A stretch of 64,000 nucleotides of DNA from Chloroflexota bacterium (lineage in GTDB: Bacteria; Chloroflexota; Anaerolineae; DUEN01). Under the pieces are notes generated by a model. That model was not told the DNA's origin and made no database searches. It was given only the letters and a program-made list of their open reading frames with translations. The DNA lies in NCBI GenBank assembly GCA_013152435.1, contig JAADGJ010000010.1, positions 13,911 to 77,910 on the forward strand, in the 5' to 3' direction. The stretch's first letter is position 1. Every line of letters begins with the position of its first letter. The translations under genes and the position numbers were made by a program. Shown here piece after piece: positions 10,090 through 28,080 of the stretch.

Positions 10090-10818
10090 TTATTGCGCCT
10101 CCTCCATCCACGCGTCCTCCGGGAGGTTGTGCCCCGCGATCAGGAGAATGGTCAGCGCCAGTAACCAGGTCGACTCCTCCTCTGAGAGCGATCCGGCCGG
10201 GAACACGGCCGGGCTATGCCCCCATTTCCGCCGCTCCTGAAAGCTGGCCAGGCGGCCGATCTCCCGGCCGTGTAGGGTCACCGTGTGAGGCCGCCCCAGC
10301 TTCTCCCTAAGGGCTGCCTGGGCTCCCGCGACGAACAGGATGGGCGGCCCTCCCACCCGGGGGGCGCTTCCCACGGCCTCGCCCGTCGAGTCAAGCAGCG
10401 TCCCATCCGGCAGGATCGTCCCCCACAACTCCCCATCGATGTGGATCGTCGTGCGCTCCGGCGTGATATCGAAGGAGAAGGTATGCTCCGTCGTGCGAGC
10501 CTCCAGGGTCCCGCGCGTCGTCTCACGCCCCCCACGTATGTTGAACGTAAAGGCGATCCATGCGGGCCCTTTGGGATCATGCACGCTATGGATCATGCCC
10601 TGGCCGCGCACCCGTCGAGGGAGCTTCACCCAACGGGCTTCCCACTTGGCGGACAGATCCTCCAGGCTCTCCGGCGGCCAGGGGCGAAGGTGCGTCACGG
10701 CCCGGCGCCACCGGCGAATCAGCCATAGGACCAAGGCGACAAGTCCTGCCATTCCCAGGCCAACCAGGCAGATGGAGGCCAGGCAGATGATCGCCCAGTT
10801 TGGAGACGTGGAATCCAT
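10090..10818 (-). CDS. Uncharacterised membrane protein (N-terminal TM anchor, ~200-aa domain, C-terminal amphipathic/TM segment); paralog of 32213..33028.
   Basis: 242 aa. Clear paralogy to the 271-aa product of 32213..33028 (LRPWPPESLEDL / LRPWSSEGLTDL; GSAPR; LARTTE; WLLALTILLIAGHNL / WLLSLAILQIAGYNL). Start 10818 has an AAGGGGGG RBS and lies 10 nt after the stop of the metzincin gene. Confidence 0.7.
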   Translation of the reverse strand: MDSTSPNWAIICLASICLVGLGMAGLVALVLWLIRRWRRAVTHLRPWPPESLEDLSAKWEARWVKLPRRVRGQGMIHSVHDPKGPAWIAFTFNIRGGRETTRGTLEARTTEHTFSFDITPERTTIHIDGELWGTILPDGTLLDSTGEAVGSAPRVGGPPILFVAGAQAALREKLGRPHTVTLHGREIGRLASFQERRKWGHSPAVFPAGSLSEEESTWLLALTILLIAGHNLPEDAWMEEAQ

Positions 10819-13800: not shown

Positions 13801-15961
13801 TGAGGATCCCATGGCGACCGTTTCCGCTGATGACGTTGCCCTCCGTATGGAACCCGCCGATGCGATGTTCTCTGCCGCGGGATATCTCGATCCCATCGCC
13901 GCCGTTACCCAAGTCCACATTGCCGCGCGGGTTCACGCCGATGCGGTTGCCGCGCACGACGTTGTCTCGTCCCGATTCGATGCGTATCCCATCCCCCATG
14001 TTGCCGCTGATGACGTTGGCAGAGAGCGCGCCAGGGGAGCCGACGGTGGTGCGACGGACGTTATCGAGATACACGCCGTCTCCGTGGTTGGGCAACGCGG
14101 TGGTGCCGAGGCGGTTCAGGCCAATGATGTTCCCCAGGATATAGGTCCTCTCAACGCCCGGTCCTCTGAGCTCGACGCCATGACTCAGGTTGCCGCTGAT
14201 CACGTTGCCCTCGCCATCGTTGGGGCCGCCGATGAAGTTGCTCCGAGCCTTCTGAGAGACGAGCACACCGATGCCGCCGTTGCCCAACGCCAGGTTGCCC
14301 TCTTTGTCGGTACCGATGACGTTCCCCCGCACGGAATTCTGGTCCGTGCCGGCGCCGGTGATCCATATGCCGCCGCTATCGTTGCCGCTGACTACGTTGC
14401 CGGGACCGATTTGATTCGCGTTGGCGCCGTCCTGGATGACGATCCCCCAACCGTGATTGGAGCGCCGCACCTCTCTGCCGGTGGGGTCCAGGCCGATGAT
14501 GTTCCGCTCTATCCGGTTCACCATGCTACCCGACCCGGCGATGAGCAGGCCGTGCTGCCCGTTCCCGCCGATCACGTTCCCCCGGATCAGGTTGTGGCTG
14601 GCGTTCTCGCTCAGGACCACGCCGATGCCGTTACCGGCCGGATTGCCGAGGGGGTCCAACCCCACGGTATTGGTGAGCACCTGATTGCTGGCCCCCTGGA
14701 TCCAGATGCCGTAATGCTCAAAGCCGGTGATGCTCAACCCCTGGATCACGACTTTGGTCCCCTCGACGATCAGGCCATCGCCGCCCGCGCCCAGGCGGGA
14801 TCCGTCGATCTGGATCTCGGGGCCGGCCGGGTTGGGGTCGCTGCCGATGAATCCCGCCTGACTGAAGCCATCTATGAGGAGGCCGGGCGCGGTCAGAGCG
14901 GGCAGGGTCGAGGTGACCTGGATGGTCCAGTAGCCGCCGGCCGGGTAGTAGCCCGGGTCCGAAGTGGGAATTCGGAACGTGATGTGCTTGACGAAATAGC
15001 GATTGGCCGCCTGAATGGCTTCGCGTAGGGAACAGTGCTGAAGCGTGCAGGCGCCATCGTCGCGATCGTCCGTAGTGTTCACCTCCCAGCGCAGTACGAA
15101 GGTCCAGCGAAGGCGGTAGGAGGCCGGCAGGACGGCCGTCCCGGGGTTCGCCCGAACGCCCACTCGGTAGGTCCCCCCGACCTCGGCCGGGTAGATGATG
15201 GCCTCCGCGCGGGTCCCGGGCGCGTCGGAGAACGCCACCTCCTCGCCGTTGGGGTCGAAGAGGACGAGAACGAGATCGATCGGCAGATCCGAGGGGGATG
15301 ATGCCGCCATCTCCGACACGCCGTCCACCTCGATCTGGAGGATCTGCCCGGGCGACACGTCGGGTAGCGCATAGTAATCCACGTCCTCCTCATGGCAGAT
15401 GTAGCTATCGACGGGCGCGTCAGGCTCGATGGACCATGCCTCCTCCGGGACATCGTTCGGCTCGTAGGGATCAGGGCAGGGAGCCGGGGTAGCGACCGAG
15501 TCCACGCGTAGGGTGTATGGGTTGGGTTGCTCGTCCTCCGTTCCCCAGACCACCGCGTAATACGTGCCCGCCTGATCCGCCGTGTGGACGATCTGTTCCG
15601 TTGTGGTCCCCGGGTTGGTCGAGGTGATGAGCACGGTCTGATCGGGCCCGTAGAGATCAAGGTTGCTATCCCATTCCATGCCGTAAAGGCTGATCGTGAT
15701 CTGCTGGCCCGTGGTCAGGGGAAAACGGAAGAAGTCGTTATCATCGGAATTGCATACGACGGCGTTGTATTCCACACCGAACTCCACCGGTGTGGCCTGG
15801 TCAAACCAGTTGTTGGGCTCGTAAGGATCGGTGCAGTCGGCGGGCAGGTGGGCCGTTGCCTCCCCATCTGGTGAGTCGCTTAGAACAACCGTACCGCCAA
15901 GGGCGAAGAGGACGAGGGGGAGGAGGAAGGCAACCAGCCATTGTGCGCGATGGAAGGACAT
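10829..15961 (-). CDS. Giant secreted multidomain metzincin-type zinc metalloprotease (1710 aa).
   Basis: Domain order read from the translation: signal peptide; two N-terminal PPC (pre-peptidase) domains (DPYEPNN...DDNDFFRF); CSLREA motif (TLQHCSLREAIQAAN); about 20 parallel beta-helix repeats (NVISGN.., GNRIG..); metzincin motif HELGHNFGRAH (12061..12093) plus Met-turn DLMSY; C-terminal Ig/PKD-like domains. The last residues are ...VQIFMPAISQE. RBS AAAGGAG. Confidence 0.85.
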   Translation of the reverse strand: MSFHRAQWLVAFLLPLVLFALGGTVVLSDSPDGEATAHLPADCTDPYEPNNWFDQATPVEFGVEYNAVVCNSDDNDFFRFPLTTGQQITISLYGMEWDSNLDLYGPDQTVLITSTNPGTTTEQIVHTADQAGTYYAVVWGTEDEQPNPYTLRVDSVATPAPCPDPYEPNDVPEEAWSIEPDAPVDSYICHEEDVDYYALPDVSPGQILQIEVDGVSEMAASSPSDLPIDLVLVLFDPNGEEVAFSDAPGTRAEAIIYPAEVGGTYRVGVRANPGTAVLPASYRLRWTFVLRWEVNTTDDRDDGACTLQHCSLREAIQAANRYFVKHITFRIPTSDPGYYPAGGYWTIQVTSTLPALTAPGLLIDGFSQAGFIGSDPNPAGPEIQIDGSRLGAGGDGLIVEGTKVVIQGLSITGFEHYGIWIQGASNQVLTNTVGLDPLGNPAGNGIGVVLSENASHNLIRGNVIGGNGQHGLLIAGSGSMVNRIERNIIGLDPTGREVRRSNHGWGIVIQDGANANQIGPGNVVSGNDSGGIWITGAGTDQNSVRGNVIGTDKEGNLALGNGGIGVLVSQKARSNFIGGPNDGEGNVISGNLSHGVELRGPGVERTYILGNIIGLNRLGTTALPNHGDGVYLDNVRRTTVGSPGALSANVISGNMGDGIRIESGRDNVVRGNRIGVNPRGNVDLGNGGDGIEISRGREHRIGGFHTEGNVISGNGRHGILIWESSTAITVTGNYIGTDATGKMAIPNDGSGVIIATGAHDNIIGSTDLFENNIISGNQDNGVHIYGTGTVRNRVLGNYIGTDFTGRVAIPNHLNGVIIAGGAQENEIGGRDTDAGNVIAGNNRLGVAITDVGTDRNKVWGNRIGIGAFSAPLPNGSHGIYIAGGAQMNQIGGASSGMANTITGNKGDGIRIEGHNTIRNTISHNSIFKNEGRGIRLLSGGNQGLSPPSVTRVTSAGGQYTLEGSTCGKCTVEVFVDDADEGEEFLTSVQADASGKYSVSVARRRRYFTLTTTDGMGNTSEFSRDLLPDLEIQALEVTQAIQDLNNSVPLVQNRPTYVRAHVRANSPLGGSVSGVFAVLKVYAVASNGTKVLIARLEPRHPHRLITVRTNPQRGRLDHSFYFELPSRWSRGRMHFVFDLNPGELVPERDLTNNRREATVTFQETRPLDIVMVRVRYESQAAGQKKPTVYLPPLQAAFETPRYTEKTFPLSQIRLWWPVGYAVLPFKHDLTRRAGWEALLDKLNWLRIRSVNTRRNWYGLVDKNIPKLAVAGIGSTRVPVAAGVAFNGRAMAHELGHNFGRAHAPSARDKKGKVIDPHCKDPSGEDTNYPNYKNPQGVPYPLSSIGEFGFDVFSFTPRVYDPASTYDLMSYCWPGWVSPYTYQAIFKKLVIRPGSSAARGTNQEQPYLLINGFVDVEADTGELGFAYVEGRPVGTADAPGEGAYRLELRDATGNVLFTRYFEPQQYIADSDTSEPRRYWIEVLPFPIGTRSIVLLHGEKVLDTRQVSPNPPTVTMDYPNGGEALDGSITIRWHGNDPDGDPLVYTLQYSIDGGGTWHTMAVNLTETSYTVDTSEIGGSDQAKVRVLASDGVNTAADESDGVFSVPRKPPLAGILVPTAGTFFPVGSPIYLKGYGTDIEDGPIEADAQLRWHSDISGDLGSGSSLEVSDLPPGYHTITLTAIDSDGLTGSASVTITVGEWPPVQIFMPAISQE

Positions 15962-16048
15962 GATCAGCTCCTTTCAGGACCCCCGTGGCATCCCGTGAGG
16001 GTCTCCCTCATCCGGCTAGTCCAACCGCGAGCGGCGCGTCGCATACGA

Positions 16049-18937
16049 TCACCCGCAAAGCGAGAACACGAGATAGCCCGCCGGACACACGATGGCCTGA
16101 TTCTCCTGCGTCGTGACGGCGATCCACTGGTCATCCGGGCTGAAGACGAGTCCCTGGAATGGGCCGCCCACGGGGAGAAGCTCAAGCCCTTGCTCCCCGC
16201 TGATGACCACATATGCCTCCGAGGAGCCAAGGGCGACCACGAGCTGCCCACCAGAAGAAAGCGCCAGCGTATGGATACTTTCCGGAGCGGGGATGCTGGC
16301 CGCGAGGGTTCCATCCACACGCCAGATGTGCAGCGCATAGCCCTCGTCGGTCGAGCCGTTGGTCAGGAACCCCCCGGGGTCGAGGAAGAGGAGCGTGTTC
16401 GGGTCGCCGGAGATCCCGGTTTTCACCGTGGCGACCGGTTCCCAGTCCTCTGTGCGCCAGATCTGTACCGTGCCCCCATAGGCGATAGCGACCAGATACG
16501 CGCCATCCGGCCCGAAGGCGACACCCTCGACGATGGGCGCGTGGACGCCTTCATACGGGAATCGGAGCTTCTGCACCACCGATCCGGTCTTCGCCTCGAT
16601 CACCGGCACCAGGCTCCCCTGGGCCGCCGAGACGGCCAGCGCGATCAGCCGGCCATCGGGGCTGAAGGCCAGGCCCATGATGCCGCCGAAGCTATCGCGA
16701 AAGGTCGCCGTGGGGGCGGCGTCCCCCTTCAGCAGCGCCGCCGTCTCCCACACGGTTAGATGATCCTGGAGATCGGCGGTGTAAGCTGTGGCCAGCAACG
16801 TCCCATCGGGGCTAAAGGCGATCTTACTGGCCTGGATAGGTTGAACGGCGAGCTGCTCAAAGGTTCGCCCATCGTAGAGGGCCAGGCGTGACGTGCCGGA
16901 CGAGCTATCCCAGAGGACCATCGCCACCCAGCGCCCCGCCGGGTCCCATGCCAGATCAAGGGGGCGCGTGCCTTCCGGGAGCGTAAGCGATGTGATCTCC
17001 TGCTCCACGGTCGATTCCGGCTGCGAGGTTGAGGAGAGATAGCGCCGGTCGTAGTACTCGCGGATCCTCTCCGGTGACCACCGGAGGCTTCGGAGCACTC
17101 GTAACACGGTCCCCTCGTGATAGCCCTCATTCCACAGGTCGGCTGGAGCCATCCAGAGGAAGTAGGCACGGATCCCTTGCTGCGGCTCCCAGAGTACCTC
17201 CAGGCCCTTACGTGTGCCGTCTTCGGAGGTAAACTCGGTGATGGTGACGGGGAGTCCCTGGGCATCCTCGCTCGTGTCCGTCTCGGCGGCCGGGCTCTCG
17301 CCGAAGGCTCGCTTTCGCAGCTCCTGAACGAACTGCTGGAAGATCTCCGCCAGGTCGGCGTCGGTGACGTCGGAATAGACGAACAGGAGCCCCTCGCCGG
17401 TCTGGTCGCTCTTAAACGCGTATCCGGTTGGCGGGTCGGTTAGCTCCTCCTCCTGGTCCAGCTGGGGGGGACGAGAGAAGGAGAAGAAACCCAAGGGCTC
17501 TTCATAAGGGGTCCACATGTTGAACTTTTTATGCACTCTGGGCGGGAACCAGGTGATTTCCAGTTCCTGCCACTGCTGCAGGCGTTGCTCCCAACGGTCC
17601 TTGGGCACGAGCCAGAAGCGGAGCAGGATGATGCCCCGATCTTCCTGGAGGCTGATCATCCCGCCGCGCTGCTCGGCCTCGGAGATCGCGTATGCGACGG
17701 CCACGCGCCCGCCCTCCGGGGCAGCTTGGGAGATGATCTCAGCATCGTCGCCGATCGTTGCGACGACCTCGGGGATGATCGCGTCCACCATCTCGCTCCA
17801 GGTGGCGTCATCCAGCGGCTGGCTGTCTACGGGGATGAACGAGATAGCCAGGGCCTCCGTATCCTCCGGGTTGCTGAAGATGTAGCCGTACTGGTTCTCG
17901 TCCGCGTTCTCCTCGACGACGCTGAGGTGCGCCGGATAGCGTATCGTGAACAGGCTGTTGGGGTCATAAGGATCGCCGAACTCGCTCCACCCCGAGGCTC
18001 CTTCGGGGGCAGGCGTGGGCGTGGGGGGCTCCACCTCCGCGCGCACGGTGAAGGTATAGGTCGCCACCTCCCGATCGTCGATGAGGAGCACCACCTTGTG
18101 TTCCCCTTCGGGCCATCCCTGCTCGGGCAGGTAGGAGAAGTAGAAGCCCGTGTCCTCGACGTTCTCCTGAGCTGTGATGGTGCGAGTGCCTGCCTCATCC
18201 AGTTGGCCGGACACATACCAGTGGGCTTCCAGCGTCGAGTGGAGTCCCAGGTCCACCCGGCCGACCACGAACACTTCCTCTGTAGGTGTGAAAGTGTCCG
18301 TGGGCTCGATCGGCTGGAAGTCCTCCGTCGCCCCCCGGGCCAGGACAGCCTGGCGCACCTGGGAGGGGATGGCCTCAGGCGGCGGGATGATGATGAACTC
18401 GTAGGATCCGGCCGGAGATCCGTTCAGGAGAATCTCCGCTCGGTAAAGATCGCTGATGGGGAATGGCTTCTCATGGGTGAGGGTGAAGCCCACGTTGGTG
18501 TTGCCCCCGATCACGAAGACCAGGCCCTGCTTCTTGCGCTCCTCGGCCAGATCCACGGTAGCCGATGCGATCTCCTGATCCTGATAGAGGAAACGGGCGG
18601 TCACCTGCCCTCCTTTGGGAGTGCCCTTCAGCTTGATGGAGAGGTAGATCGTCTCTTCCGGTGTAAACGTGTTGCCGGGATTGACGGGGGCGAATTCCTC
18701 CGTCAGGCCGTGGGCGAAGGTAGCCTCCAGGATCTTCAGAGCAGTCTGTTCCTCTGCGACGGGGGTGGGAGTGGGGACGATCTCCTCTTCCTCAGGCGCG
18801 GGCGTCTGCACGGCCGCCTCCCCGGCCGGAGCAGGCGTCGGCGTGGCCGGCTCCTCCTCACCGCCGCAGGCTGCCAACCCGAATGCAAGCGACAAGGCCA
18901 GGAACACGGTCAGAAGGTACATACGCATCTCTCGCAT
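16049..18937 (-). CDS. Lipoprotein with duplicated N-terminal domains and a C-terminal WD40/TolB-like beta-propeller (962 aa).
   Basis: Signal peptide with lipobox LAACGG and a TP/E-rich linker. Repeats FSPDGTLLATA, FSPDGRLIALA, FGPDGAYLVAIA and FSPDDQWIAVT are typical of beta-propeller blades. RBS GGAGGA. Confidence 0.75.
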   Translation of the reverse strand: MREMRMYLLTVFLALSLAFGLAACGGEEEPATPTPAPAGEAAVQTPAPEEEEIVPTPTPVAEEQTALKILEATFAHGLTEEFAPVNPGNTFTPEETIYLSIKLKGTPKGGQVTARFLYQDQEIASATVDLAEERKKQGLVFVIGGNTNVGFTLTHEKPFPISDLYRAEILLNGSPAGSYEFIIIPPPEAIPSQVRQAVLARGATEDFQPIEPTDTFTPTEEVFVVGRVDLGLHSTLEAHWYVSGQLDEAGTRTITAQENVEDTGFYFSYLPEQGWPEGEHKVVLLIDDREVATYTFTVRAEVEPPTPTPAPEGASGWSEFGDPYDPNSLFTIRYPAHLSVVEENADENQYGYIFSNPEDTEALAISFIPVDSQPLDDATWSEMVDAIIPEVVATIGDDAEIISQAAPEGGRVAVAYAISEAEQRGGMISLQEDRGIILLRFWLVPKDRWEQRLQQWQELEITWFPPRVHKKFNMWTPYEEPLGFFSFSRPPQLDQEEELTDPPTGYAFKSDQTGEGLLFVYSDVTDADLAEIFQQFVQELRKRAFGESPAAETDTSEDAQGLPVTITEFTSEDGTRKGLEVLWEPQQGIRAYFLWMAPADLWNEGYHEGTVLRVLRSLRWSPERIREYYDRRYLSSTSQPESTVEQEITSLTLPEGTRPLDLAWDPAGRWVAMVLWDSSSGTSRLALYDGRTFEQLAVQPIQASKIAFSPDGTLLATAYTADLQDHLTVWETAALLKGDAAPTATFRDSFGGIMGLAFSPDGRLIALAVSAAQGSLVPVIEAKTGSVVQKLRFPYEGVHAPIVEGVAFGPDGAYLVAIAYGGTVQIWRTEDWEPVATVKTGISGDPNTLLFLDPGGFLTNGSTDEGYALHIWRVDGTLAASIPAPESIHTLALSSGGQLVVALGSSEAYVVISGEQGLELLPVGGPFQGLVFSPDDQWIAVTTQENQAIVCPAGYLVFSLCG

Positions 18938-19014
18938 CTTTCTTTCCTCCGTTCGAACTCTGATTTCTCCACATCTCTCACCAGGGGAGACATCTTTCTC
19001 TGGTGGCTCTCACA

Positions 19015-22000
19015 TCAGGGTGCCCCCAGGGGCAGTTCCCTGAGCATGGTCGGGAAGAAGGTCTGACGGTTGACATAGATATCGATGGCGTCGGAGGCGT
19101 GATTGCCGTCGTCATCGGTAACGGCGACGGTGATCCGGTGTCGCCCTAGGCTCAGTTGCGACGCCAGGATCTCCTGGCCGATGCCCAGATCCCCGTCACG
19201 ATCGGAGTGCCAGCTGTACGCCTCATCGGGCAGCGCCCCGTCCTCAGCGTCGTATCCGATCGCGCTGAGGAGGACCGAGGAGCCCAGGAACATCCCGGCC
19301 CCATCCTGAGGGGCCAGGATGGACACCCTGGGGGGCTTGGCTGGCACGGTGAACGGGCCGGTCATATCCTCCGCCGTGTTCACGCCATCGGTGATTCGGA
19401 CGCGCAACATCCCCTGCTGCGTCTCGGGCCACAGCGAGGTGTCCAACTCCACCTGCGTCTCCTTGATATCGATGGCAAGCGGCTCCCATGTCTCGCCGGC
19501 GTCGGCGCTGAAGTACACCGTGGCCGTGAGCGCATCACCGTCCGGGTCGGCCGTTTCCCAGGAGAGGGTGAGGGTGTCGGGCACGATATCTGGCACCGGA
19601 TCGAGGGTTACCGTCGGGGGATTGGGGCTGGCGGTCGTGGAGGTCAGCTCAGCGCCCTGATGGGCGATGACGATGCGGGTTGTGCGCGCGTCATAAGGCA
19701 CCCACACGGCGAAGGGTAGAGGGGCATCTTCGGTGTCGACCCCCGGTAGTGGGGTGAACGGCTGCTCGGCCAATACGGTGCCGTCGGCGGCCAGCAATCG
19801 AACGGCGTACTCGCCCTCCGATTCCCCCCAGGCCATGGCGCTCACCTCGGATGCCGGTAAACGCATCATGGGCAGCAGGGTGATCTGCTCAGTCCTCTGA
19901 TCTATCGCGCCCACCACCTCCAGGTATTCACCCTCTTGGGACGCAGGCTGCAACGGGGCGGGGGAGGGGGTGCCGCCTTGGAGGCGTTTCTTCAGCTTGC
20001 GAAAGGTGTAATCCGATATCCATCGGTTGAGCTGATAGGTCATAATGTCGGCGAAGACGGTCGGGTTCTTGATGAGAGGCGGGGAGAAGCCCGTGTCTAG
20101 CCCATAGTAATCCCGCTCGCCGCCCCGGCTCAGTTGGGTCCCGGGATAGGGATAAGGCTCATAAGGCCCCGCGGTGAGGCCATCGCTCACATGATGCATC
20201 CCCAGACAATGGGCGATCTCATGAGCAAAAGTGCCCCCTGTTCTCTCCGGGTCCTTTGGATGCACTTTGACCCAGCCGACGCGCCACTTGTCACTACAGA
20301 ACCCGTTGAACTTCCGGGTGTTCGTGGAATCCCGAACTACGGCCAGGGCGACGGTGTTCGGCCCCTTCACCAGGCTGCGCAGACGGATCAGTTGGGCCTG
20401 CATGACGCCCACGGTTCTGCCGAATTGGATCCAGGTTCGGTGGGGGTGCAGGGTGATCCTGCTGAGCGGGTACATGCGTTGGGCCACCAGGTGAATATGC
20501 TTATAGTCATTGTAGGAAAGCCCGTTCGTCTCCTGACAGTTGGTGGTGCAGCCGTCGCGCACCTGCACGATCTTAATATCCAGGGGCGGCGATGGTTCGA
20601 CTGTCATCGTGACGGTCCTGGTGTTGTTGTGCGAGGCCGGATCGCTGGTGCAGGGTGCGTCCACCTGTGCGGTGATCTCCAGGGTTCCCGACCTGGCCAC
20701 CCAGGACGGCGGAATCGGGCAGTAGAGGCCGCCGGTGATTGTATTGTTGCGGGCATATTTCTCACTTCCAGGATAAAACCGGATGACAGGGCTGTTGGCA
20801 CAAGGGACAGGGGCTGTTCCCAGAGAGACCCCATCTCGCTTCGCCCGTAGCCACCCACGCGTGGAGACGGTAACCTTGCGATCGCCCTTCGTATACAACC
20901 GCACATAGGTTCGCTTACCCGCGATCAGGGGTACATCGTTGTCCAGGTTCTGGATGCTCTGCGTCACCTCCATGTCGATGAGCTGAAGGTCCAGGACGGT
21001 GGGCCGGGGGACATATGCGGAGGGCGGGCATACCACCGGCGTCGGCGTCAGCGTTGGTGTGGGCGTTGGAGTCGGCGTCCACGTGGGCGTCGGGGTCGAG
21101 GTTGGCGTCGGGGTCGAGGTTGGCGTTGAGGTGGGCGTGGGCGTGGCCGAGTTGACGCGTGCGCTGAGACGATAGCGGTGAATGATGTCCCCGTCGACCT
21201 GGGGGCCGACCTCCAGGTAGAAATAGTCGCTCTTGGTAGGGAAGGTGTCGATCCGCAGGGTGTTGTTGATGGGAACTGTGGCGCAGTTCAGGCGGTTCCC
21301 GGTGCTCATATCCACCAGGCAGAGGAACATTTGGCCCTGGGAAGAGGTGTATGTCACCTCGGCGATCAGCCGATCCCCTTGATCCGCCTGCAAAACGAAC
21401 CAGTCCCGGTCACCGGGGGGACAGATGCTGAGGTTATCGTGCTCCTCGGTGTGATCGCGGGTGTTCCTCAATTCCCACGCCTTATAGTAGGGATCGTTGG
21501 GCTCCAGCCGATCCATCTGACAGTTGAACACCTGGGCCAGGATGGTATACGGCCTGCTCGTGTCGAAGTACCGGCCCTTTCCCGTGACCTGAACGTACCA
21601 GGTGCCGCTGCGGTCGGCGGTGAACCGGGCGAGCTCATCCGGGGTGCCGCTCAGGACCGAGGAGGTGGCCCGGGTCCGATCCGGGCGGTACAGGAAGAGA
21701 TCATAGTCCTGAGGCAGATCGTAAAGTTGGACTTTCATGGTCTGGCTGATGCTGATGGATGGGAGCAGCCAGTAGTCCTGATCGGCGACGGCACAAATAT
21801 AGCTGACCGTGGGAGCGTCCACGATGGACCAGAAGGCCTCGTCAAAGGTGTCGTTGGGCTCCCAGGGATCGGGACACCCGGGATAGCGCGGCGTAGCCGT
21901 TGGCGTCGGGGTGGGCGTAGGCGTGGCCGTGGCCAGATTCGTCCCGCATGCGGTCAGGCGCACGTTATCCAGGAAGAACCGGGTGAGGTTCTGGGCGTTG

Positions 22001-22941
22001 GTCGTGGCTGTGAAGCGGAGGGTATCAAAGCCGCTCAGGTACGGGGTCAGATCCGTTGAAAAGCTACCCTGTCCCGGATCGCCGATATGTCGCGTGATCT
22101 GGGTGAACTGGCCGGTAGAGCCGTTCTCGAGGACGACATCCAATGTGTCTCCGGCATCACTGGGGCCGTCTATCAGGAGGTCATACGTCAGCGTCAGGCG
22201 GGTGGTGTTGAGCGGCAGGGTAAAGGTCTGCCTCAGGTGGCTGGTCTGGCTATCTCCGTGGCTGAGCAGCGCACTGTATACCCCATCGCTGGCCCATTCT
22301 GCGGTGATGGGATCCGGGATATCGGCGGTGCTGGTCCACTGCCACGCGAGCAGCCCGACCTCAAAGGAGCCATTCGTCAGGATCTGGGTGCACGTCTCGC
22401 CGGGGCCGGATGTGGGTGTGGGTGTGGGGGTAGGGGTAGGGGTATCCGTGGCCTGGCTCGCGGCTGTAACGCGAAGGGTGTAAGGGTTGACGAGCTCTCC
22501 TTCGGTGCCATGGACGAGGGCGTAGTGGGTGCCGCTCTCCTGAGCCGTGTAGATGATTTGCTCCGGTGTGTCACCCGGATTCGTGGAGCTGGCGATGAGC
22601 GTCTCCCCTGGGTCGTACAGATCCAGATCGCTGTTCAGCTCCATGTTGTATAGATCGATCACCACCTGCTGGCCGGCGTCGAGATAGAAGCGGTAATAGT
22701 CGAGGTCGTCGGAGTTGCAGACGTAGGCGGCGTACTCCGCGTCGAATTCCACGTCGGTCGCCTGGGTGAACCAATCGTTGGGCTCGTAGGGATCGGGACA
22801 CTCCGAGGGCAGGGCAATGTTGGCGGCGCCACGGTACCCGAAAGCCGGTACCTGATGACCCCCGTTCAGGGCGATCATGATGAACACCAGCATCGAGAGC
22901 GGGATGATCATCATGATATGGGATAACGCCCGCTGTGCCAT
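19015..22941 (-). CDS. Giant secreted metzincin-type zinc metalloprotease, paralog of 10829..15961 (about 1308 aa from Met at 22941).
   Basis: Signal peptide MAQRALSHIMMIIPLSMLVFIMIALNG; three PPC domains; a CBM-like middle domain; multiple TPTPTP linkers; metzincin motif HEIAHCLGMHH (20191..20223) plus Met-turn DIMTY; C-terminal Ig-like domains aligning with the paralog. It ends ...RQTFFPTMLRELPLGAP. The upstream 42-codon extension in the track is rejected because it would overlap the gene that ends at 22956. Confidence 0.85.
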   Translation of the reverse strand: MAQRALSHIMMIIPLSMLVFIMIALNGGHQVPAFGYRGAANIALPSECPDPYEPNDWFTQATDVEFDAEYAAYVCNSDDLDYYRFYLDAGQQVVIDLYNMELNSDLDLYDPGETLIASSTNPGDTPEQIIYTAQESGTHYALVHGTEGELVNPYTLRVTAASQATDTPTPTPTPTPTSGPGETCTQILTNGSFEVGLLAWQWTSTADIPDPITAEWASDGVYSALLSHGDSQTSHLRQTFTLPLNTTRLTLTYDLLIDGPSDAGDTLDVVLENGSTGQFTQITRHIGDPGQGSFSTDLTPYLSGFDTLRFTATTNAQNLTRFFLDNVRLTACGTNLATATPTPTPTPTATPRYPGCPDPWEPNDTFDEAFWSIVDAPTVSYICAVADQDYWLLPSISISQTMKVQLYDLPQDYDLFLYRPDRTRATSSVLSGTPDELARFTADRSGTWYVQVTGKGRYFDTSRPYTILAQVFNCQMDRLEPNDPYYKAWELRNTRDHTEEHDNLSICPPGDRDWFVLQADQGDRLIAEVTYTSSQGQMFLCLVDMSTGNRLNCATVPINNTLRIDTFPTKSDYFYLEVGPQVDGDIIHRYRLSARVNSATPTPTSTPTSTPTPTSTPTPTWTPTPTPTPTLTPTPVVCPPSAYVPRPTVLDLQLIDMEVTQSIQNLDNDVPLIAGKRTYVRLYTKGDRKVTVSTRGWLRAKRDGVSLGTAPVPCANSPVIRFYPGSEKYARNNTITGGLYCPIPPSWVARSGTLEITAQVDAPCTSDPASHNNTRTVTMTVEPSPPLDIKIVQVRDGCTTNCQETNGLSYNDYKHIHLVAQRMYPLSRITLHPHRTWIQFGRTVGVMQAQLIRLRSLVKGPNTVALAVVRDSTNTRKFNGFCSDKWRVGWVKVHPKDPERTGGTFAHEIAHCLGMHHVSDGLTAGPYEPYPYPGTQLSRGGERDYYGLDTGFSPPLIKNPTVFADIMTYQLNRWISDYTFRKLKKRLQGGTPSPAPLQPASQEGEYLEVVGAIDQRTEQITLLPMMRLPASEVSAMAWGESEGEYAVRLLAADGTVLAEQPFTPLPGVDTEDAPLPFAVWVPYDARTTRIVIAHQGAELTSTTASPNPPTVTLDPVPDIVPDTLTLSWETADPDGDALTATVYFSADAGETWEPLAIDIKETQVELDTSLWPETQQGMLRVRITDGVNTAEDMTGPFTVPAKPPRVSILAPQDGAGMFLGSSVLLSAIGYDAEDGALPDEAYSWHSDRDGDLGIGQEILASQLSLGRHRITVAVTDDDGNHASDAIDIYVNRQTFFPTMLRELPLGAP
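21036..21150 (-). repeat. Hexanucleotide (GGCGTN)n coding repeat specifying a Thr-Pro linker.
   Basis: Runs of ggcgtc/ggcgtg/ggggtc on the plus strand, which are ACGCCN on the coding strand and give TPTPTSTPTPT. Smaller copies lie at about 21891..21935 and 22401..22450. Confidence 0.8.
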
Positions 22942-22955
22942 AATGTCCCTCCCCG

Positions 22956-24017
22956 CTACATGTGCAGGAGCACCGGCAGGTAGATCTTGATGTGGCCTGG
23001 CATCCCCGTTGGTGTGGGCGTCGGCGTCACGATGGCCAGGCGGAGGGCGTAGGGAGTGGCGCTCCACGCGTTTTGAGGGGCGAAAACGCCAGCGATGTAG
23101 TTGTTCCAGCTGGGAACATAGTGCTCCACATGCTCGGGTGTGGTGGCAGGCTGCCTCGATGCGGCTACCGGGGTGGCCTTCCCAGGCTCCCAGAGGAGGA
23201 GATCATAATTCTCAGGCAGGTTGGTTAGATCCAGGATCACGACGTTCCCGCCGGTCACATAGAAGCTGTAGTAATCCTCGTCTCCCTGAGGACAGATGTA
23301 TGCCTGAATCTGCCCCGGCGAGATGGGCGCCGCGTTAAACCCATCGTCATTGGGTTCATAGGCGTCGGGCGGACATATCGACGTAGGCGTGAGCGTGGGA
23401 GTTGGTGTGGGCGTGGGCGTGCTCGTCGGCGTGGGAGTTGGCGTTGATGTGGGCGTGTTCGTCGCTGTCGGGGTCGGCGTCGGCGTCGGTGTGAGCACCG
23501 CCACCTGTAGCGTATAGGGATTCACGCTCCACACACCACCATAACCGAAGACGTTCGCCCGGTATCCCCCGGTTTGGGAGGCTACATGCTCGATGTGCTC
23601 GGAGGTGGTGCCGGTGTTCTGGGAACGGGCGGTCAGATATCCTGAGGGGTCCCAGAGAAAGAGATCGAAGTCATCCGGCAAATTGGTTAGATCCAGTCGA
23701 ATCGTATCCCCGGCGGTAACGGAGAACTGAAAATAATCCTCGTCTCCCTGAGGGCAGATGACCGCCTCCCATAATCCTGGGGAGATCGAGTAAGCCGTGC
23801 TGAAGGTGTCGTTGGGCTCAAAGGGATCGTAGGGGCAGTCCTGAGTCTGGAACGCCGGGGCCGGGGCGGGCGCTCGCAGGGGATCCGAAAGGGTCGATCC
23901 TGCCGAGCGTCCGGAGAGCATGATCCAGAGCGGGAAGAGGAGAAGCAAAGGGATCAGCGAGTGCCCGGATTTCAAAATCGGATTCCGTGATATGGGGTGC
24001 TGACGTGGAGGTGCCAT
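22956..24017 (-). CDS. Small secreted protein with two PPC (pre-peptidase C-terminal-type) domains joined by a long TP linker.
   Basis: Signal peptide from Met at 24017 (MAPPRQHPISRNPILKSGHSLIPLLLLFPLWIMLSG). Two copies of the YEPND...ICPQGDEDYY.F module. C-terminus ...GHIKIYLPVLLHM. RBS AAGGAGAGGG. Confidence 0.75.
   Translation of the reverse strand: MAPPRQHPISRNPILKSGHSLIPLLLLFPLWIMLSGRSAGSTLSDPLRAPAPAPAFQTQDCPYDPFEPNDTFSTAYSISPGLWEAVICPQGDEDYFQFSVTAGDTIRLDLTNLPDDFDLFLWDPSGYLTARSQNTGTTSEHIEHVASQTGGYRANVFGYGGVWSVNPYTLQVAVLTPTPTPTPTATNTPTSTPTPTPTSTPTPTPTPTLTPTSICPPDAYEPNDDGFNAAPISPGQIQAYICPQGDEDYYSFYVTGGNVVILDLTNLPENYDLLLWEPGKATPVAASRQPATTPEHVEHYVPSWNNYIAGVFAPQNAWSATPYALRLAIVTPTPTPTGMPGHIKIYLPVLLHM
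23385..23500 (-). repeat. Hexanucleotide coding repeat for a 40-residue Thr-Pro linker.
   Basis: (GGCGTN/GGTGTG)n on the plus strand, giving TPTPTPTATNTPTSTPTPTPTSTPTPTPTPTLTPT. Confidence 0.8.
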
Positions 24018-24046
24018 GATCCCTCTCCTTATCTTCAGAGGTGGAG

Positions 24047-25876
24047 CTATCTCATGACATGCGGGATATAGATCTTCCGAGCTCCATTGGATCCAGATGC
24101 GTCCGTTCCCCAATCCGGGTATGCCGCGCGGCCGTCGGTGGTGACGGGCCACAGCTCCACCGGGTTCTCCAGGTTGAGAATCCACAGATCGCGCCCGTTG
24201 ACCGTGCGGCGATCGAACATGAGATACTTCCCATCGGGAGAGACCGTGGGTGAATGCACGGGATCGGCGAGGAGCTGTTCCGTGTATCGATATAGGTTCA
24301 GCTGGGTCAGCGGCTGTACCTGCCCGGTGGAGAATCGATACAGGTAGAAGTTAAGCCCGTCCGTGTAAACGAAGCCGGAGCCATCCGGCAGCCAGGCCAG
24401 TTCCTGGGTGGAGATCCCGGTGCTCACCGCGTTCACCAGCAGGGTGCCCTGGCCGCCGCCCTCCGTGGTTTGGTAGATCCCCGCGTATGAGGCGTAGAGC
24501 AGGGTGCCGTCCCCCTGGGGAGACCAGGAGAAATCGCTCACCCCTCGGGCGTTGGTGGTGAAGGGATCCCCCAGCAGCCCGCCCAGGGTCACCGTCTGGG
24601 CCACGCCGTTGACCGAGAAGCCGATGAGCGCTCCATCCGGCCTCCAGGAGGGATTGCTGGGCTCGATGGCCTGGCAATCATCGGGGACGAAGTTCAGCGT
24701 GCCCACGCTCGTCGTCTTGCCTGCGCGCACGTCCACCATCCCCCCGGCGAAGGTATACAGCCCCTGGCTGCATTTGCTGTCCATCCAGATGAGGACGATG
24801 TACTGCAACGTGCCCGACCCCAGGTCTGCCACATTGGGGACGACGAAGGAGGCCGTGCTGTTGGGGCCGAGGGGGCCGAGCGCGATGGGTGTAGCCGCTC
24901 CCTGCACGTAGATTGAGGCGGCGGTGATCTGCCGGTTGCTGTTGTTGTGGACGACGCCGCTCACCGTGCCTCGGCCATAGCCGCCGCTTTGCATGTCCGC
25001 GTGGGAGGGTGGGTTGGTCACACGGCGCACACGTCCATCGCTCACACGAACGCGATATACATCCACGTGGAAGCGGGAGTAACCCGCCTCGTGATCGCTG
25101 GTGAACGCGATCTCCGAGCCGCCTGGTCTCCAGGCCAGGCCGAAGATCTTTCCCTTGCCGGCGACGGGATATGTCCAGAGGACGTGGCGGTTGCTGCCGT
25201 CGGGGTTCATCCAGCCGATGGTGTAGCGCCCGCTGTGATCCACCCCCCGGTAGGCGACGCGCCCGCTCAGCTGTGGATACACCATCTCACCGCTGAGTTT
25301 GAGGGATACATTGTCCACATAGGCCTGGAACGCGTCGTGTTGGTTGAGGACCAGTTGGATGAGGAGATAGACGCGCTGTTTGGCCTGGTGCGCGGCCTGA
25401 ATCGCGGCCACCTCGCCGTCGCTCAGAGTGTGTTGGAAACGCTGCCAGCCTGTGTCGCCGGTCACTACGGGGGTCACCTGCCAGGAGGTGATCTCGGTGG
25501 CCTGGGTGCCGTCGTGCTTGATGAAGCCGGCGACGAGCCGGCCGCCATAGGCGCCATAAGTGCCGGGCACCATACGATAGTCGAAGGAGACGGTAGCCGC
25601 GGTGGTGCGGGTGGGCAGGTAGATCTCCTGCCAAGCGCTCGCCGGCCCTCGGCTCAAAAAGGTCTTGAGGACGAGGACCGGGTCGGTGCCCACCCCTACG
25701 CTCTCCGTGGTGGTCACCTCGTTCCATCCCCAATCGTCCAGCCGGGCGTCAAAGGTGCCGTTGCGGATGAACTCGCGGTTGGTGAACGTCTCCCCGCCCG
25801 CGGCGAACGCTTGCATCGGCGTGACAATCGTGCTCATGATCAGGCACAAAAGCGCCCACGGGATGTATCTTTGCAT
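24047..25876 (-). CDS. Secreted protein with an N-terminal CBM-like jelly-roll domain and a TolB/WD40-like beta-propeller (609 aa).
   Basis: Signal peptide MQRYIPWALLCLIMSTIVTPMQAFA. The N-terminal segment matches the CBM4/9-like pattern (NGTFD...WGW). Propeller blades WRPGG, WSPQGDG, VSPDGKY. It ends ...GARKIYIPHVMR. Confidence 0.7.
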   Translation of the reverse strand: MQRYIPWALLCLIMSTIVTPMQAFAAGGETFTNREFIRNGTFDARLDDWGWNEVTTTESVGVGTDPVLVLKTFLSRGPASAWQEIYLPTRTTAATVSFDYRMVPGTYGAYGGRLVAGFIKHDGTQATEITSWQVTPVVTGDTGWQRFQHTLSDGEVAAIQAAHQAKQRVYLLIQLVLNQHDAFQAYVDNVSLKLSGEMVYPQLSGRVAYRGVDHSGRYTIGWMNPDGSNRHVLWTYPVAGKGKIFGLAWRPGGSEIAFTSDHEAGYSRFHVDVYRVRVSDGRVRRVTNPPSHADMQSGGYGRGTVSGVVHNNSNRQITAASIYVQGAATPIALGPLGPNSTASFVVPNVADLGSGTLQYIVLIWMDSKCSQGLYTFAGGMVDVRAGKTTSVGTLNFVPDDCQAIEPSNPSWRPDGALIGFSVNGVAQTVTLGGLLGDPFTTNARGVSDFSWSPQGDGTLLYASYAGIYQTTEGGGQGTLLVNAVSTGISTQELAWLPDGSGFVYTDGLNFYLYRFSTGQVQPLTQLNLYRYTEQLLADPVHSPTVSPDGKYLMFDRRTVNGRDLWILNLENPVELWPVTTDGRAAYPDWGTDASGSNGARKIYIPHVMR

Positions 25877-25919
25877 AGACGGATTCTCCTAGGGTCGCTG
25901 CAAGAAAGCGACAGAACCG

Positions 25920-27950
25920 TTATTGCCGCCGTATGATGGGCAGATAGATGTGCCGCGAAGGCGTCGGGGGGGCGGCTCCGCCGCTCAGCGCGATCGTAAG
26001 GGAGTAGGTCTGGTTGGCGCTGAAACCTGCGTAGGAAGTGACCGTGACGTAATAGAAGCCGCTCCCGGTCGCCACGTGTTCAATACGCTCGTCAGCATTG
26101 CCCGAGTTGGTAGAGGTGGCCACCTGGTTCTGACCAGGATCGCTCAGCCACAGATCGTAATCCGTGTTGGCGGGGATGTTCGTCAGGTCGATGATGATGC
26201 GCTGGCCCGCACTCGCGTTGAATTTGAAGTAATCGATGTCCTGATCGGAGCAAATGGCTGCTCGCAGGGTGGTTCCGGGCGTGATGCTGCGGGCCTGGCT
26301 GAAGTTGTCGTTGGGCTCGTAGGCGTCCGCACAGGCGAGCCTGGGCAAGACCGCCAGAACGGAGCCAAAGCTATCCCATTCTTCGGCTTGGTCTTCGATG
26401 CCATGGCTGTCTTGCGTCCACCACTGATTGTTTTGTGCGGTCAGGCCCTGAGTTGAGCCGTAGATGACCTGCACGGCTCCCGCGTTCTGGGTGTTGCCCA
26501 GATCTTCATAAGGGACGCCAACTGCGAGATCATCGTAGCCATCCCAATTGAAATCGCCCGCGGCCAGGGATTGCCCGAAGCTGTCGTTCGCCTTGGCCCC
26601 GTCGTTGTTCAGGCCGGGGGAGCCCTGATACCATAGCTGGGAACCGGAATCTGTCAGCCCTTGGTCGGTGCCGTAGATGATGATCACAGCTCCCGTATCG
26701 TTCACACTATTCATTTCTTCGTCGCGGACGCCTACGGCCAGGTCGTCGTATCCATCGCCGTCGAAATCGCCCGCGGCCAGGGCATAGCCGAATTCTTCAT
26801 CCTCTTCCGCGCGGTCCGGCAAATTGCCCGTGTCCTGCGTCCACCGCTGGTCGGGTGTGGCGAGGCCCTTGCTTGAGCCGTAGAGGACGTGCACAACGCC
26901 GGCTTCGCTCACCTTCCCGGCATCTTCGTTATGCGCTCCGATGGCCAGGTCGTCGTATCCATCGCCATCGAAATCACCCACGGCCAACGCCTCGCCGAAA
27001 TCGACATCCTCCTTCGGCTGGCCTGAGATGCCGTTATCGCTTTGATTGAACAGTTGATTACCTGTGGCCGTAAGCCCCTGTGCAGAGCCATATATCACCT
27101 GCACTGCGCCGGCGTTGGGCTCGCCCGTCACTTCCTCACCACGAATACCGATCGCCAGGTCGGCATACCCATCACCATTGAAGTCGCCAGAGGCCAGAGC
27201 GTCGCCGAAGAAGTCCCCATCACTGGCCTCCCCCAACATGCCGGGACTATCCTGATGCCACATCTGGTTGCCTGTGGCGGTCAGACCCTGGGCCGACCCG
27301 TAGAGGATGTGCACCACCCCCAGTGCGTCGGCGTTGTCGGCCTGGAAGCCCTCCGATGGATTGCTGATGGCCAGGTCCGTGTAGCCATCGCCATTGAAAT
27401 CGCCCGCGGCCAGGGCTTCACCGAAACTGTCGTAGTCTTCGACGCTATCGAGCACGCCCGGCGAGTTCTGGTCCCAAAGCTCACTGCGTTGCCCCACGCC
27501 GGTGGCTGATCCGTACAGGACGATGACCGCGCCGCCCTTCTTGCCCCCGGCTGGGGTCTCTCCATAGGCGCCGATGGCCAAATCAGGATAGCCATCGCCA
27601 TTGAAATCGCCCGCGGCCAGGGCGTTGCCGAAGAAGTCCCCTTTTTCCGCGTTCTCGGGGATGCCGGGGCTATCCTGGGTCCAGAATTGGCTGCCGGTGG
27701 CCGTGAGACCGGCGTTGGATCCGGGAATGGCATGAACGGCCCCGGCCATACTGACGTTGCCGACGGCCTCAGAGTCCACACCCACCACCAGGCCGTCCTG
27801 GAAGGTAAATCGGGGTGCGTTCGTTGCAACAGGCTGAGTCGGAGAGAGGAGAGTGCTACCGACCGCCACGCGCGCACCGAAGATCAGGATCACCATGCAG
27901 AGGGTGACCGAGACAGCGCCGATAAAGTGAATCCGTCCTTTTCGTGTCAT
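25920..27950 (-). CDS. Secreted FG-GAP (integrin-alpha-like) repeat protein with a C-terminal PPC domain.
   Basis: About 8 repeats of GDFNGDGY(A/D)DLAIG. Then the PPC module CADAYEPNDNF...ICSDQDIDYFKF. It ends ...RHIYLPIIRRQ. Start ATG 27950 has a GGGAGG RBS; the track's upstream start at 28001 is rejected. Confidence 0.8.
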   Translation of the reverse strand: MTRKGRIHFIGAVSVTLCMVILIFGARVAVGSTLLSPTQPVATNAPRFTFQDGLVVGVDSEAVGNVSMAGAVHAIPGSNAGLTATGSQFWTQDSPGIPENAEKGDFFGNALAAGDFNGDGYPDLAIGAYGETPAGGKKGGAVIVLYGSATGVGQRSELWDQNSPGVLDSVEDYDSFGEALAAGDFNGDGYTDLAISNPSEGFQADNADALGVVHILYGSAQGLTATGNQMWHQDSPGMLGEASDGDFFGDALASGDFNGDGYADLAIGIRGEEVTGEPNAGAVQVIYGSAQGLTATGNQLFNQSDNGISGQPKEDVDFGEALAVGDFDGDGYDDLAIGAHNEDAGKVSEAGVVHVLYGSSKGLATPDQRWTQDTGNLPDRAEEDEEFGYALAAGDFDGDGYDDLAVGVRDEEMNSVNDTGAVIIIYGTDQGLTDSGSQLWYQGSPGLNNDGAKANDSFGQSLAAGDFNWDGYDDLAVGVPYEDLGNTQNAGAVQVIYGSTQGLTAQNNQWWTQDSHGIEDQAEEWDSFGSVLAVLPRLACADAYEPNDNFSQARSITPGTTLRAAICSDQDIDYFKFNASAGQRIIIDLTNIPANTDYDLWLSDPGQNQVATSTNSGNADERIEHVATGSGFYYVTVTSYAGFSANQTYSLTIALSGGAAPPTPSRHIYLPIIRRQ

Positions 27951-28080
27951 CTTGCCTCCCTGCCTTGAAAACAGGTTCTCCGACCGATTCTCGTGGTTCA
28001 CGGCGTCCCGTTAGGGGCACGGTGACTGTCATCAAAAGAGATGCCTTTCCCTTGCTCTTGCCGTCTACCGTCTGCCGGAT

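Follow-up and report, generated by a model that had tools for sequence, protein, structure and literature searches.

We analyzed a 64,000-nucleotide stretch (the window; G+C content ~63%) of contig JAADGJ010000010.1 from the Chloroflexota bacterium assembly GCA_013152435.1, and focused on 2 large genes, A and B, that encode multidomain proteins with the signature of metzincin zinc peptidases. Both genes are complete and lie on the same strand.

19015-22941, minus strand: gene A including its stop codon, 1308 amino acids (aa), from the open reading frame (ORF) listing; ortholog 88.5% identical in the metagenome-assembled genome (MAG) JAJRVX01
10829-15961, minus strand: gene B including its stop codon, 1710 aa; L001 ortholog 97% identical over aa 1-1538

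The mechanical ORF of A is longer, extending up to a GTG at 23067 (minus strand, 19015-23067), and the ATG at 22941, which lies 6 nucleotides (nt) after the Shine-Dalgarno-like stretch GGGGAGGG and 14 nt past the stop of the upstream gene, is likely the start of A. B lies downstream of A at a distance of ~3 kb, and the sole intervening gene encodes a 962-aa WD40 protein. The gene order is syntenic, at 90-95% nucleotide identity, in the related MAG Chloroflexota bacterium Dive96_bin10.82 (JAJRVX01), where both paralogs are present, which places the window in an uncultured Chloroflexota lineage. The modules of protein A, all on the minus strand, were assigned as follows, with PPC standing for the pre-peptidase C-terminal domain and CBM for carbohydrate-binding module.

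22822-22941: hydrophobic N-terminal leader, aa 1-40 (IMMIIPLSMLVFIMIAL), read from the sequence as a putative signal peptide or signal anchor, with putative cleavage
22456-22803: PPC module 1 (CPDPYEPND ... DLDYYRF), aa 47-162; Pfam PF04151, best stretch aa 81-145
21922-22419: Cys-bracketed "NGSFE ... FFLDNV" domain, aa 175-340, probably a CBM-type jelly-roll
21157-21879: PPC modules 2 and 3, aa 355-595; module 2 alone scores 24.1 bits as PPC, module 3 is divergent
21025-21156: long Pro/Thr/Ser linker, aa 596-639, from the sequence
20572-21024: Ig/CARDB-like beta-sandwich before the catalytic domain, aa 640-790; AlphaFold (AF2) model, with Foldseek matches to CARDB 3IDU and the Ig-like part of StcE
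19942-20571: metzincin catalytic domain, aa 791-1000; AF2 model, Foldseek, hhalign, and motifs
20191-20223: zinc motif HEIAHCLGMHH, aa 907-917
20035-20049: Met-turn motif DIMTY, aa 965-969
19072-19941: post-catalytic beta-sandwich, FN3-like (Asp-box-like "SADAGETW") and K319L/PKD-like domains, aa 1001-1290; weak Pfam matches
19018-19071: C-terminal tail, aa 1291-1308, ending in ...RQTFFPTMLRELPLGAP (tail of the ortholog, RQTFFPIMLKGLPREAP)

Protein B, also on the minus strand, was divided in the same way.

15086-15841: PPC modules 1 and 2, aa 41-292; Pfam PF04151, 43.5 bits in 2 stretches
13127-15082: CSLREA N-terminal domain (aa 294-320) followed by a right-handed parallel beta-helix, aa 294-945; TIGR04214, Beta_helix, and NosD
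15017-15034: CSLREA motif, aa 310-315
12896-13126: Big_6-like Ig domain, aa 946-1022; weak Pfam match, with the same domain above the cut-off in the relative P0150
12452-12895: Ig/CARDB-like sandwich, aa 1023-1170; AF2 model with pLDDT 91.8, Foldseek matches to CARDB 2KL6/3IDU
11762-12451: metzincin catalytic domain, aa 1171-1400; AF2 model, Foldseek, motifs, and hhalign
12059-12091: zinc motif HELGHNFGRAH, aa 1291-1301
11855-11869: Met-turn motif DLMSY, aa 1365-1369
10832-11761: beta-sandwich, FN3-like and PKD-like domains with the tail ...PPVQIFMPAISQE, aa 1401-1710; Pfam and the A-B alignment

The first PPC module was found directly behind the hydrophobic leader in A and B alike, and the placement given in the sequence-only reading, with PPC copies after the leader (2 in B and 3 in A), was borne out by PF04151 scores above the Pfam cut-off of 25.9 bits in both proteins (51.6 bits in A and 43.5 bits in B, 2 stretches each). 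Module starts of the EPND type (C-x-D-P-Y-E-P-N-D) were located at aa 53, 361, and 480 of A and at aa 48 and 167 of B. Module 3 of A was detected only by BLAST to the PPCs of 2 proteins encoded nearby, an FG-GAP protein and a 409-aa protein, p409 (E 6e-7 to 1e-4). All 5 modules are N-terminal to the catalytic domain, as they are in the relatives P0139, P0147, P0150, and P0156. Within the block of same-strand genes around A and B, we counted 8 PPC occurrences in 4 proteins, including the peptidase-less p409 and the C-terminus of the FG-GAP protein.

The fronts of the 2 proteins differ beyond the first PPC module. The CSLREA and beta-helix section that had been proposed for B was recovered well above the cut-offs, with TIGR04214 (CSLREA_Nterm) at 40.4 bits (cut-off 25), Beta_helix (PF13229) at 85.8 bits (25.9), and NosD at 51.2 bits (23.6), and ~26 N-x-[IVL] rungs were counted along the helix. 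The CBM-like insert proposed for A (aa 175-340) had no Pfam match, and a word-index search gave no homologs, which an exhaustive HMMER search showed to be a sensitivity limit and not an absence of relatives. A homologous domain was found at the N-terminus of P0138 and P0140. A profile of 3 sequences, run against the PDB, matched CBM16 2ZEZ over the full length (E 0.0076) and an alginase N-terminus (E 0.011). Given the missing Pfam match and an E value obtained with 3 sequences, a CBM-like nature of this domain is plausible but weakly supported.

Zinc site, fold, and relation to M66

The full metzincin signature that had been recognized in these paralogous giants, HExxHxxGxxH followed by D[IL]M[ST]Y, is intact in A and B. 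A family alignment of 32 sequences showed no variation at H, E, H, and H of the zinc motif or at D and M of the Met-turn. In a 59-sequence alignment, the same held for the E, the D, and the last two His of the zinc motif, with the first His and the Met close to invariant. Because these residues are invariant or nearly invariant across relatives and the domains are under purifying selection, we do not regard the motifs as chance matches. The same observations bear on the idea that A and B serve in adhesion or as structural parts of the envelope and that their metzincin domain is a scaffold without catalytic activity: binding and repeat modules make up most of the mass of both proteins and the adjoining genes encode adhesion-type repeats, but H, E, H, H, and the Met-turn are kept in both paralogs and their orthologs, and the ratio of nonsynonymous to synonymous substitution (dN/dS) of the catalytic domains is 0.11 and 0.19, so we give this idea hardly any credence.

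The family consensus reads AHELGHNFGRxHAPCG ... DLMSYCxPxWISDYTY. Between the third His and the Met, the spacing (50 aa in A, 66 aa in B) exceeds that of adamalysins in both proteins. The family also has a nearly invariant Cys pair (HAPCG ... DLMSYC), the first after the third His and the second after the Met-turn, which probably forms a disulfide. A has lost both Cys (HHVSDG and DIMTYQ; 20035-20223), and B keeps both (11855-12091), with a 13-aa insertion before the first.

The AF2 models were confident, with a pLDDT of 91.8 and a pTM of 0.90 for B and a pLDDT of 82.1 and a pTM of 0.84 for A. Both models consist of a beta-sandwich followed by strands, a backing helix (A), further strands, the active-site helix, the Met-turn, and a C-terminal helix (C), with the Met-turn motif 8-10 residues ahead of the last helix. 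Foldseek against the PDB placed StcE (3UJZ) first for the model of protein A (E 1.2e-8, probability 1.00, 435 columns covering both domains, TMq 0.47), followed by ADAM-8, adamalysin II, and fragilysin (probability 1.00; target-normalized TM 0.5-0.6), and the model of protein B matched CARDB domains and fragilysin (probability up to 1.00).

No Pfam family reached its threshold on the catalytic region of A or B, the best being weak matches to Reprolysin_x at the zinc site and to Peptidase_M66. Among the 32 aligned family members, 27 matched PF10462 (M66; E <= 0.01, best E 1e-9), so that a match of this region to a metallopeptidase family was obtained for most relatives and stayed below threshold for A and B themselves. 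The other Pfam matches among the 32 were Reprolysin_3 (19), CARDB (17), and Reprolysin_5 (16, best 9e-6). A search with the catalytic region of B returned 224 relatives with identity up to 33%, many of them carrying precomputed PF10462 with or without CARDB, and the names assigned by NCBI included "M66 family metalloprotease" (Thermus, Longimicrobiales) and "M12 family metallo-peptidase" (some Gemmatimonadota). With stcE/tagA from pO157 taken as a direct comparison sequence, hhalign of 2 family profiles gave probabilities of 87% (E 4e-6, 196 columns) and 72% (E 3.4e-5, 220 columns), which is supportive but in both cases below the usual confidence level of 95%. Both alignments shared one register, beginning in the final strands of the sandwich and continuing through the zinc site, with AHELGHNFGRxH over SHEVGHNYGLGH.

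Several results weigh against a relationship with StcE. PF10462 scored 11.8 bits on A and 11.9 bits on B with a cut-off of 20.6, the model of protein A superposed on StcE with TM-scores below 0.5 and a structural identity of ~12%, StcE was not within the top 50 Foldseek matches for the model of protein B, and the family profile run against PDB sequences matched only the HExxH neighborhood of adamalysins (E 4e-5), with StcE not among the 60 best. The catalytic domain might accordingly be assigned to a separate metzincin family, adamalysin/M12-like or unnamed, whose likeness to StcE would amount to a generic fold and a coincidental Ig-like domain; the adamalysin profile match, the fragilysin match of the model of protein B, the 12-19 of 32 relatives matched by Reprolysin_3, _5, and _4, the M12 names in Gemmatimonadota, and the scores of A and B under the M66 cut-off all fit this assignment. 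However, M66 is the Pfam family with the most relatives and the best E value (27 of 32 at 1e-9 versus 9e-6 for Reprolysin_5), the hhalign alignments extend over 196-220 columns and well beyond the motif, and StcE is the top match of the model of protein A and the sole one spanning both domains, which makes a separate family unlikely. We conclude that the catalytic domains of A and B are genuine metzincins whose nearest known family is probably M66, at a distance that leaves them below the Pfam membership threshold. The statement in the sequence-only reading that the architecture does not match M66 has to be corrected for the catalytic unit, which resembles M66/StcE.

Family architecture and age of the paralogs

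A word-index search with the catalytic region of A returned 10 matches only, a limit of sensitivity, as an exhaustive HMMER search with aa 640-1308 of A showed. Among the best 150 representatives examined from that search, the full ~650-aa core was a single continuous match in 33 and reached the C-terminus in most; 22 of these 33 were longer than 1000 aa, with the extra length mostly N-terminal to the core. The total of 13,632 matches (E <= 0.001) was not used as a family size because the PKD-like C-terminal domain also matches repeat-rich giants and inflates the count. The conserved unit is the C-terminal core composed of the Ig/CARDB-like sandwich, the metzincin, the beta-sandwich, and the FN3-like and PKD-like domains, and the region corresponding to aa 1001-1290 of A is conserved with B and with the family core. 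Pfam modules outside the core were scanned in 11 giants, and the following combinations were identified.

P0139: 4 PPC and core
P0147: DUF11 and PPC, and core
P0150, Chloroflexi MAG, 2131 aa: 2 PPC, beta-helix, Big_6, and core
P0156: 2 PPC and core
P0192: beta-helix, DUF11, and core
P0221, P0275, P0248: FG-GAP and core
P0233: LVIVD propeller and core
P0243: beta-helix, TSP3, and core

The core was followed by an SLH domain in P0232 and by a transmembrane (TM) anchor in P0176 and P0243. Where a giant carries a name, it comes from a Chloroflexota or Chloroflexia MAG, and its annotation is "hypothetical" or "PPC domain-containing protein". The front of P0150 aligned with that of B (CSLREA, beta-helix, and Ig) at 35% identity over 737 aa, and its core was 38% identical to A versus 27% to B. 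Because P0150 joins a B-like front to an A-like core, the sequence comparison indicates that N-terminal modules and core lineages are shuffled among family members. By the same comparison of domain layouts, the N-terminal PPC is a recurrent solution in this lineage and not a singular invention, and the uniqueness implied for the layout of A and B is lost, with 33 of the 150 best representatives sharing the core and P0150 having the architecture of B.

A and B had also been described as recent duplicates sharing 50-65% identity in several segments. This level of identity was found in the first PPC module only (62.5% over 112 aa; 51% over 172 aa with the leader), and identity was 41% in the FN3 and PKD end, 27% in the catalytic domain, and 29% over the C-terminal 726 aa as a whole. 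Synonymous differences were saturated in every segment, with a proportion of differing synonymous sites (pS) of 0.71 in PPC1, 0.58 in FN3+PKD, and 0.69 in the metzincin (range 0.58-0.71). We considered and rejected a recent conversion of PPC1 between the two genes, as a pS of 0.71 is saturated. The core of A was 43-48% identical to P0136, P0138, P0139, and P0140, which come from other metagenomes and Chloroflexota MAGs, and it was nearer to P0136, P0139, and P0140 (45-48%) than to B. A and B are old paralogs and not recent duplicates, because their cores are 29% identical, their synonymous sites are saturated, and the core of A is this close to proteins from other metagenomes.

The proposal that A and B are recent, tandem-like duplicates with a novel N-terminal-PPC protease architecture, unlike known layouts, could draw on the 62.5% identity of the first PPC module, on the position of the genes ~3 kb apart on the same strand, and on the point that no characterised M66 enzyme is known to have N-terminal PPC domains. 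Yet synonymous saturation extends even to PPC1, both paralogs are present in the related MAG, and P0139 and P0150 share the supposedly novel layouts, and we regard the proposal as very improbable.

Per domain, dN/dS against the ortholog of the related MAG was 0.03-0.42, except for the short Ig domain of B (77 aa), where it was 0.84; because it is low in nearly every domain, A and B are real, constrained genes. Divergence from the syntenic MAG locus (10829-28001 compared with L001 and L002) was very uneven, with synonymous divergence (dS) of 0.035-0.59 per domain and protein identities to the MAG of 97% for B, 88.5% for A, and 78% for the WD40 protein. Such unevenness along the locus suggests mosaic recombination between strains.

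At a probability of roughly 0.7, we favor the reading that A and B are anciently diverged paralogs and that they belong to a large family of secreted multidomain metzincins, uncharacterised by experiment and recovered here chiefly from Chloroflexota MAGs, whose core is distantly related to StcE (M66). Specifically, the Ig/CARDB and metzincin unit would be a distant relative of the Ig-like and catalytic unit of StcE.

The surrounding block and its C-terminal tail

The same-strand genes around A and B encode large repeat- and adhesion-type proteins (FG-GAP with PPC, PD40, sortilin/BNR, WD40, and CSLREA/PMP). These genes lie close together on a single strand, and PPC modules or a common C-terminal tail recur in most of the encoded proteins. 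The neighboring genes for which further observations were made are as follows.

16049-18937, minus strand: 962-aa WD40 protein with a lipoprotein-like leader (LAACGG), an acidic Pro/Thr/Glu-rich spacer, and a C-terminal WD40 propeller
22956-24185, minus strand: p409, 409 aa with 2 PPC modules
10090-10818, minus strand: p242, small protein of 242 aa
32213-33028, minus strand: p271, small protein of 271 aa
33038-34507, minus strand: p489, 489-aa CSLREA/PMP-repeat protein
34991-38449, plus strand: SARP/BTAD-NACHT-TPR regulator, divergently transcribed from the secreted-protein block
39136-40260, plus strand: tyrosine recombinase/integrase, just beyond the regulator

The secreted-protein block may represent a regulated, possibly mobile, island. 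The WD40 protein is without the tail motif and evolves fastest among the block genes. The mechanical ORF of p409 overlaps the end of its upstream gene by ~139 nt, and its true start is probably a Met near aa 56, around window position 24020, because the MAG ortholog aligns from aa 52 onward only. The proteins p242 and p271 are paralogs (40% identical, E 6e-57) with hydrophobic segments at the N- and C-terminus, as in small membrane proteins, and had no Pfam match. Each lies ~10 nt downstream of a gene for a CSLREA-domain protein (B and p489, respectively), and such a protein with p242 or p271 may form a conserved gene pair. The window yielded neither tRNA genes nor matches to Rfam, and its promoter and terminator scans were at or below shuffle expectation. 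The exact sequence of A was not on record in a look-up, and tblastn of A against plasmids gave weak matches alone, among them a Thermus M66, and was uninformative.

Six block proteins, all encoded on the minus strand, end within their last 8-15 residues in a common motif, [h]-[YF]-[LMI]-P-x-h-h-[RK..] (e.g., IYLPLVLR).

10829-15961, minus strand: B, tail VQIFMPAISQE
19015-22941, minus strand: A, tail QTFFPTMLRELPLGAP
22956-24185, minus strand: p409, tail IKIYLPVLLHM
24047-25876, minus strand: p609, tail RKIYIPHVMR
25920-28001, minus strand: FG-GAP protein, tail RHIYLPIIRRQ
33038-34507, minus strand: p489, tail RYFLPVMVKKG

The same tail was identified on most close core relatives (P0136-P0275; RIYLPLVVR, RTYLPMLLGR, VYLPMVLR, and others) and on 2 otherwise different Anaerolineae giants (L003:287-4627 and L004:56-4756; APIYLPLVLRNF and APIYLPLVLRNH). 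A strict pattern, with an expected frequency of 0.45% among 20-aa tails, was observed in 10% of 278 fetched proteins. The secreted proteins that carry the tail have last domains unrelated to one another, and, in contrast to LPXTG and PEP-CTERM-type signals, the motif is not followed by a TM segment. A literature search for this tail found nothing relevant, which is not proof of novelty. The tail may be a Chloroflexota sorting or anchoring tag. It is a far more tentative proposal, and one we consider doubtful, that the block at 10090-34507 is a cell-surface set sorted or anchored by an undescribed TM-less tag and that A and B act on this set, e.g., by cleaving mucin-like Pro/Thr linkers or the tag.

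Proposed role and comparison with known systems

A and B are most likely envelope-associated extracellular zinc endopeptidases with substrate-targeting modules. The extracellular context is indicated by the hydrophobic leaders in both proteins and by the Pro/Thr linkers in A. Different lineages have fused interchangeable binding modules ahead of the core. In the mechanism that we propose, the hydrophobic leader would direct export of the proteins. Their PPC, CBM-like, and beta-helix modules at the N-terminal side could then dock on a polymeric (glyco)protein, a polysaccharide substrate, or the cell envelope, and the C-terminal core would cut peptide bonds outside the cell, with zinc held by the 3 His of HExxHxxGxxH, the Glu as the general base, and the Met-turn beneath the site. 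The proteins would remain envelope-associated, as suggested by the SLH domain or TM anchor that follows the core in some relatives.

Alternatively, A and B might serve specifically to process the surface proteins encoded alongside them, by cutting Pro/Thr-rich, possibly O-glycosylated and mucin-like linkers or by removing PPCs or tails, and not as general scavengers of nutrients. The probable distant relationship to the mucin-cleaving StcE, the Pro/Thr linkers in A, p409, and the BNR protein, and the tightly packed one-strand genes with a common PPC or tail, syntenic in the MAG, are all compatible with such a role, but the core has relatives across many unrelated contexts and phyla (Thermus, Gemmatimonadota, and Longimicrobia), and the specificity of StcE is not transferable because structural identity is only ~12%. 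By analogy with StcE, a role in processing co-encoded surface proteins or cutting mucin-like Pro/Thr linkers is possible but unsupported, and we think it a poor bet that this is what A and B are dedicated to.

The reading of A and B as members of a StcE-related family of secreted metzincins has consequences for annotation. A sizeable StcE-like metzincin clade lies largely below the Pfam M66 threshold and is annotated in MAGs only as "hypothetical" or "PPC domain-containing". With a model built for this clade, many large secreted proteins from Chloroflexota, Gemmatimonadota, and Thermus would be recognized as peptidases. In sediments and sludge, Chloroflexota are abundant degraders, and modular proteases that combine binding modules with a location at the envelope are a plausible means of attacking polymeric proteins or glycoproteins. 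The C-terminal tail may be the most original lead and could mark a phylum-specific sorting or anchoring route.

StcE/TagA is a secreted mucinase of E. coli O157:H7 assigned to MEROPS M66 that cleaves Ser/Thr-rich O-glycosylated mucin domains. Like StcE (3UJZ), A and B have an HExxHxxGxxH zinc site and a metzincin domain immediately preceded by an Ig-like beta-sandwich, and they are presumably secreted. However, the family described here is distinct in its conserved motifs (HAPCG ... DLMSYC-P-W-SDYTY) and in the domains that follow the metzincin (sandwich, FN3-like, and PKD-like), and A and B add N-terminal PPC, CBM-like (A), and beta-helix (B) modules.

The "M66" or hypothetical proteins of ~520-660 aa from Thermus, Longimicrobiales, Gemmatimonadota, and Anaerolineae have the CARDB-like and metzincin core, with or without the downstream sandwich, and are 26-33% identical to the catalytic region of B over 87-98% of its length. 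They are uncharacterised and differ in having no long N-terminal extension, with all at or below 666 aa among the 120 matches listed. P0138 (MBN1483362.1), P0139 (NOZ29076.1), P0150 (MCP4166699.1), and P0192 (MBI3957948.1) have the 650-aa core in full, with 33-45% identity to A, and also resemble A and B in their fronts (2-4 PPC, CBM-like, or beta-helix with Big_6) and in the C-terminal tail motif.

Adamalysin/reprolysin (M12B) and fragilysin have the metzincin fold in common with A and B, but sequence similarity is limited to the HExxH neighborhood and those enzymes are without a preceding CARDB/Ig domain. The PPC modules can be compared with the collagen-binding domains of ColG and ColH, which have the PPC fold (PF04151): aa 47-141 of B gave a weak match to the ColH domain 3JQW (E 0.15), and the EPND ... 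DxDYY signature presumably resembles the Ca-binding residues of the ColG/ColH domains. In contrast to those domains, the PPCs described here are located upstream of the protease and not C-terminal, occur also in non-protease proteins, and have a conserved Cys pair. Taken against these systems, A and B extend a known kind, as a variation in domain architecture on a known enzyme class with no new mechanism.

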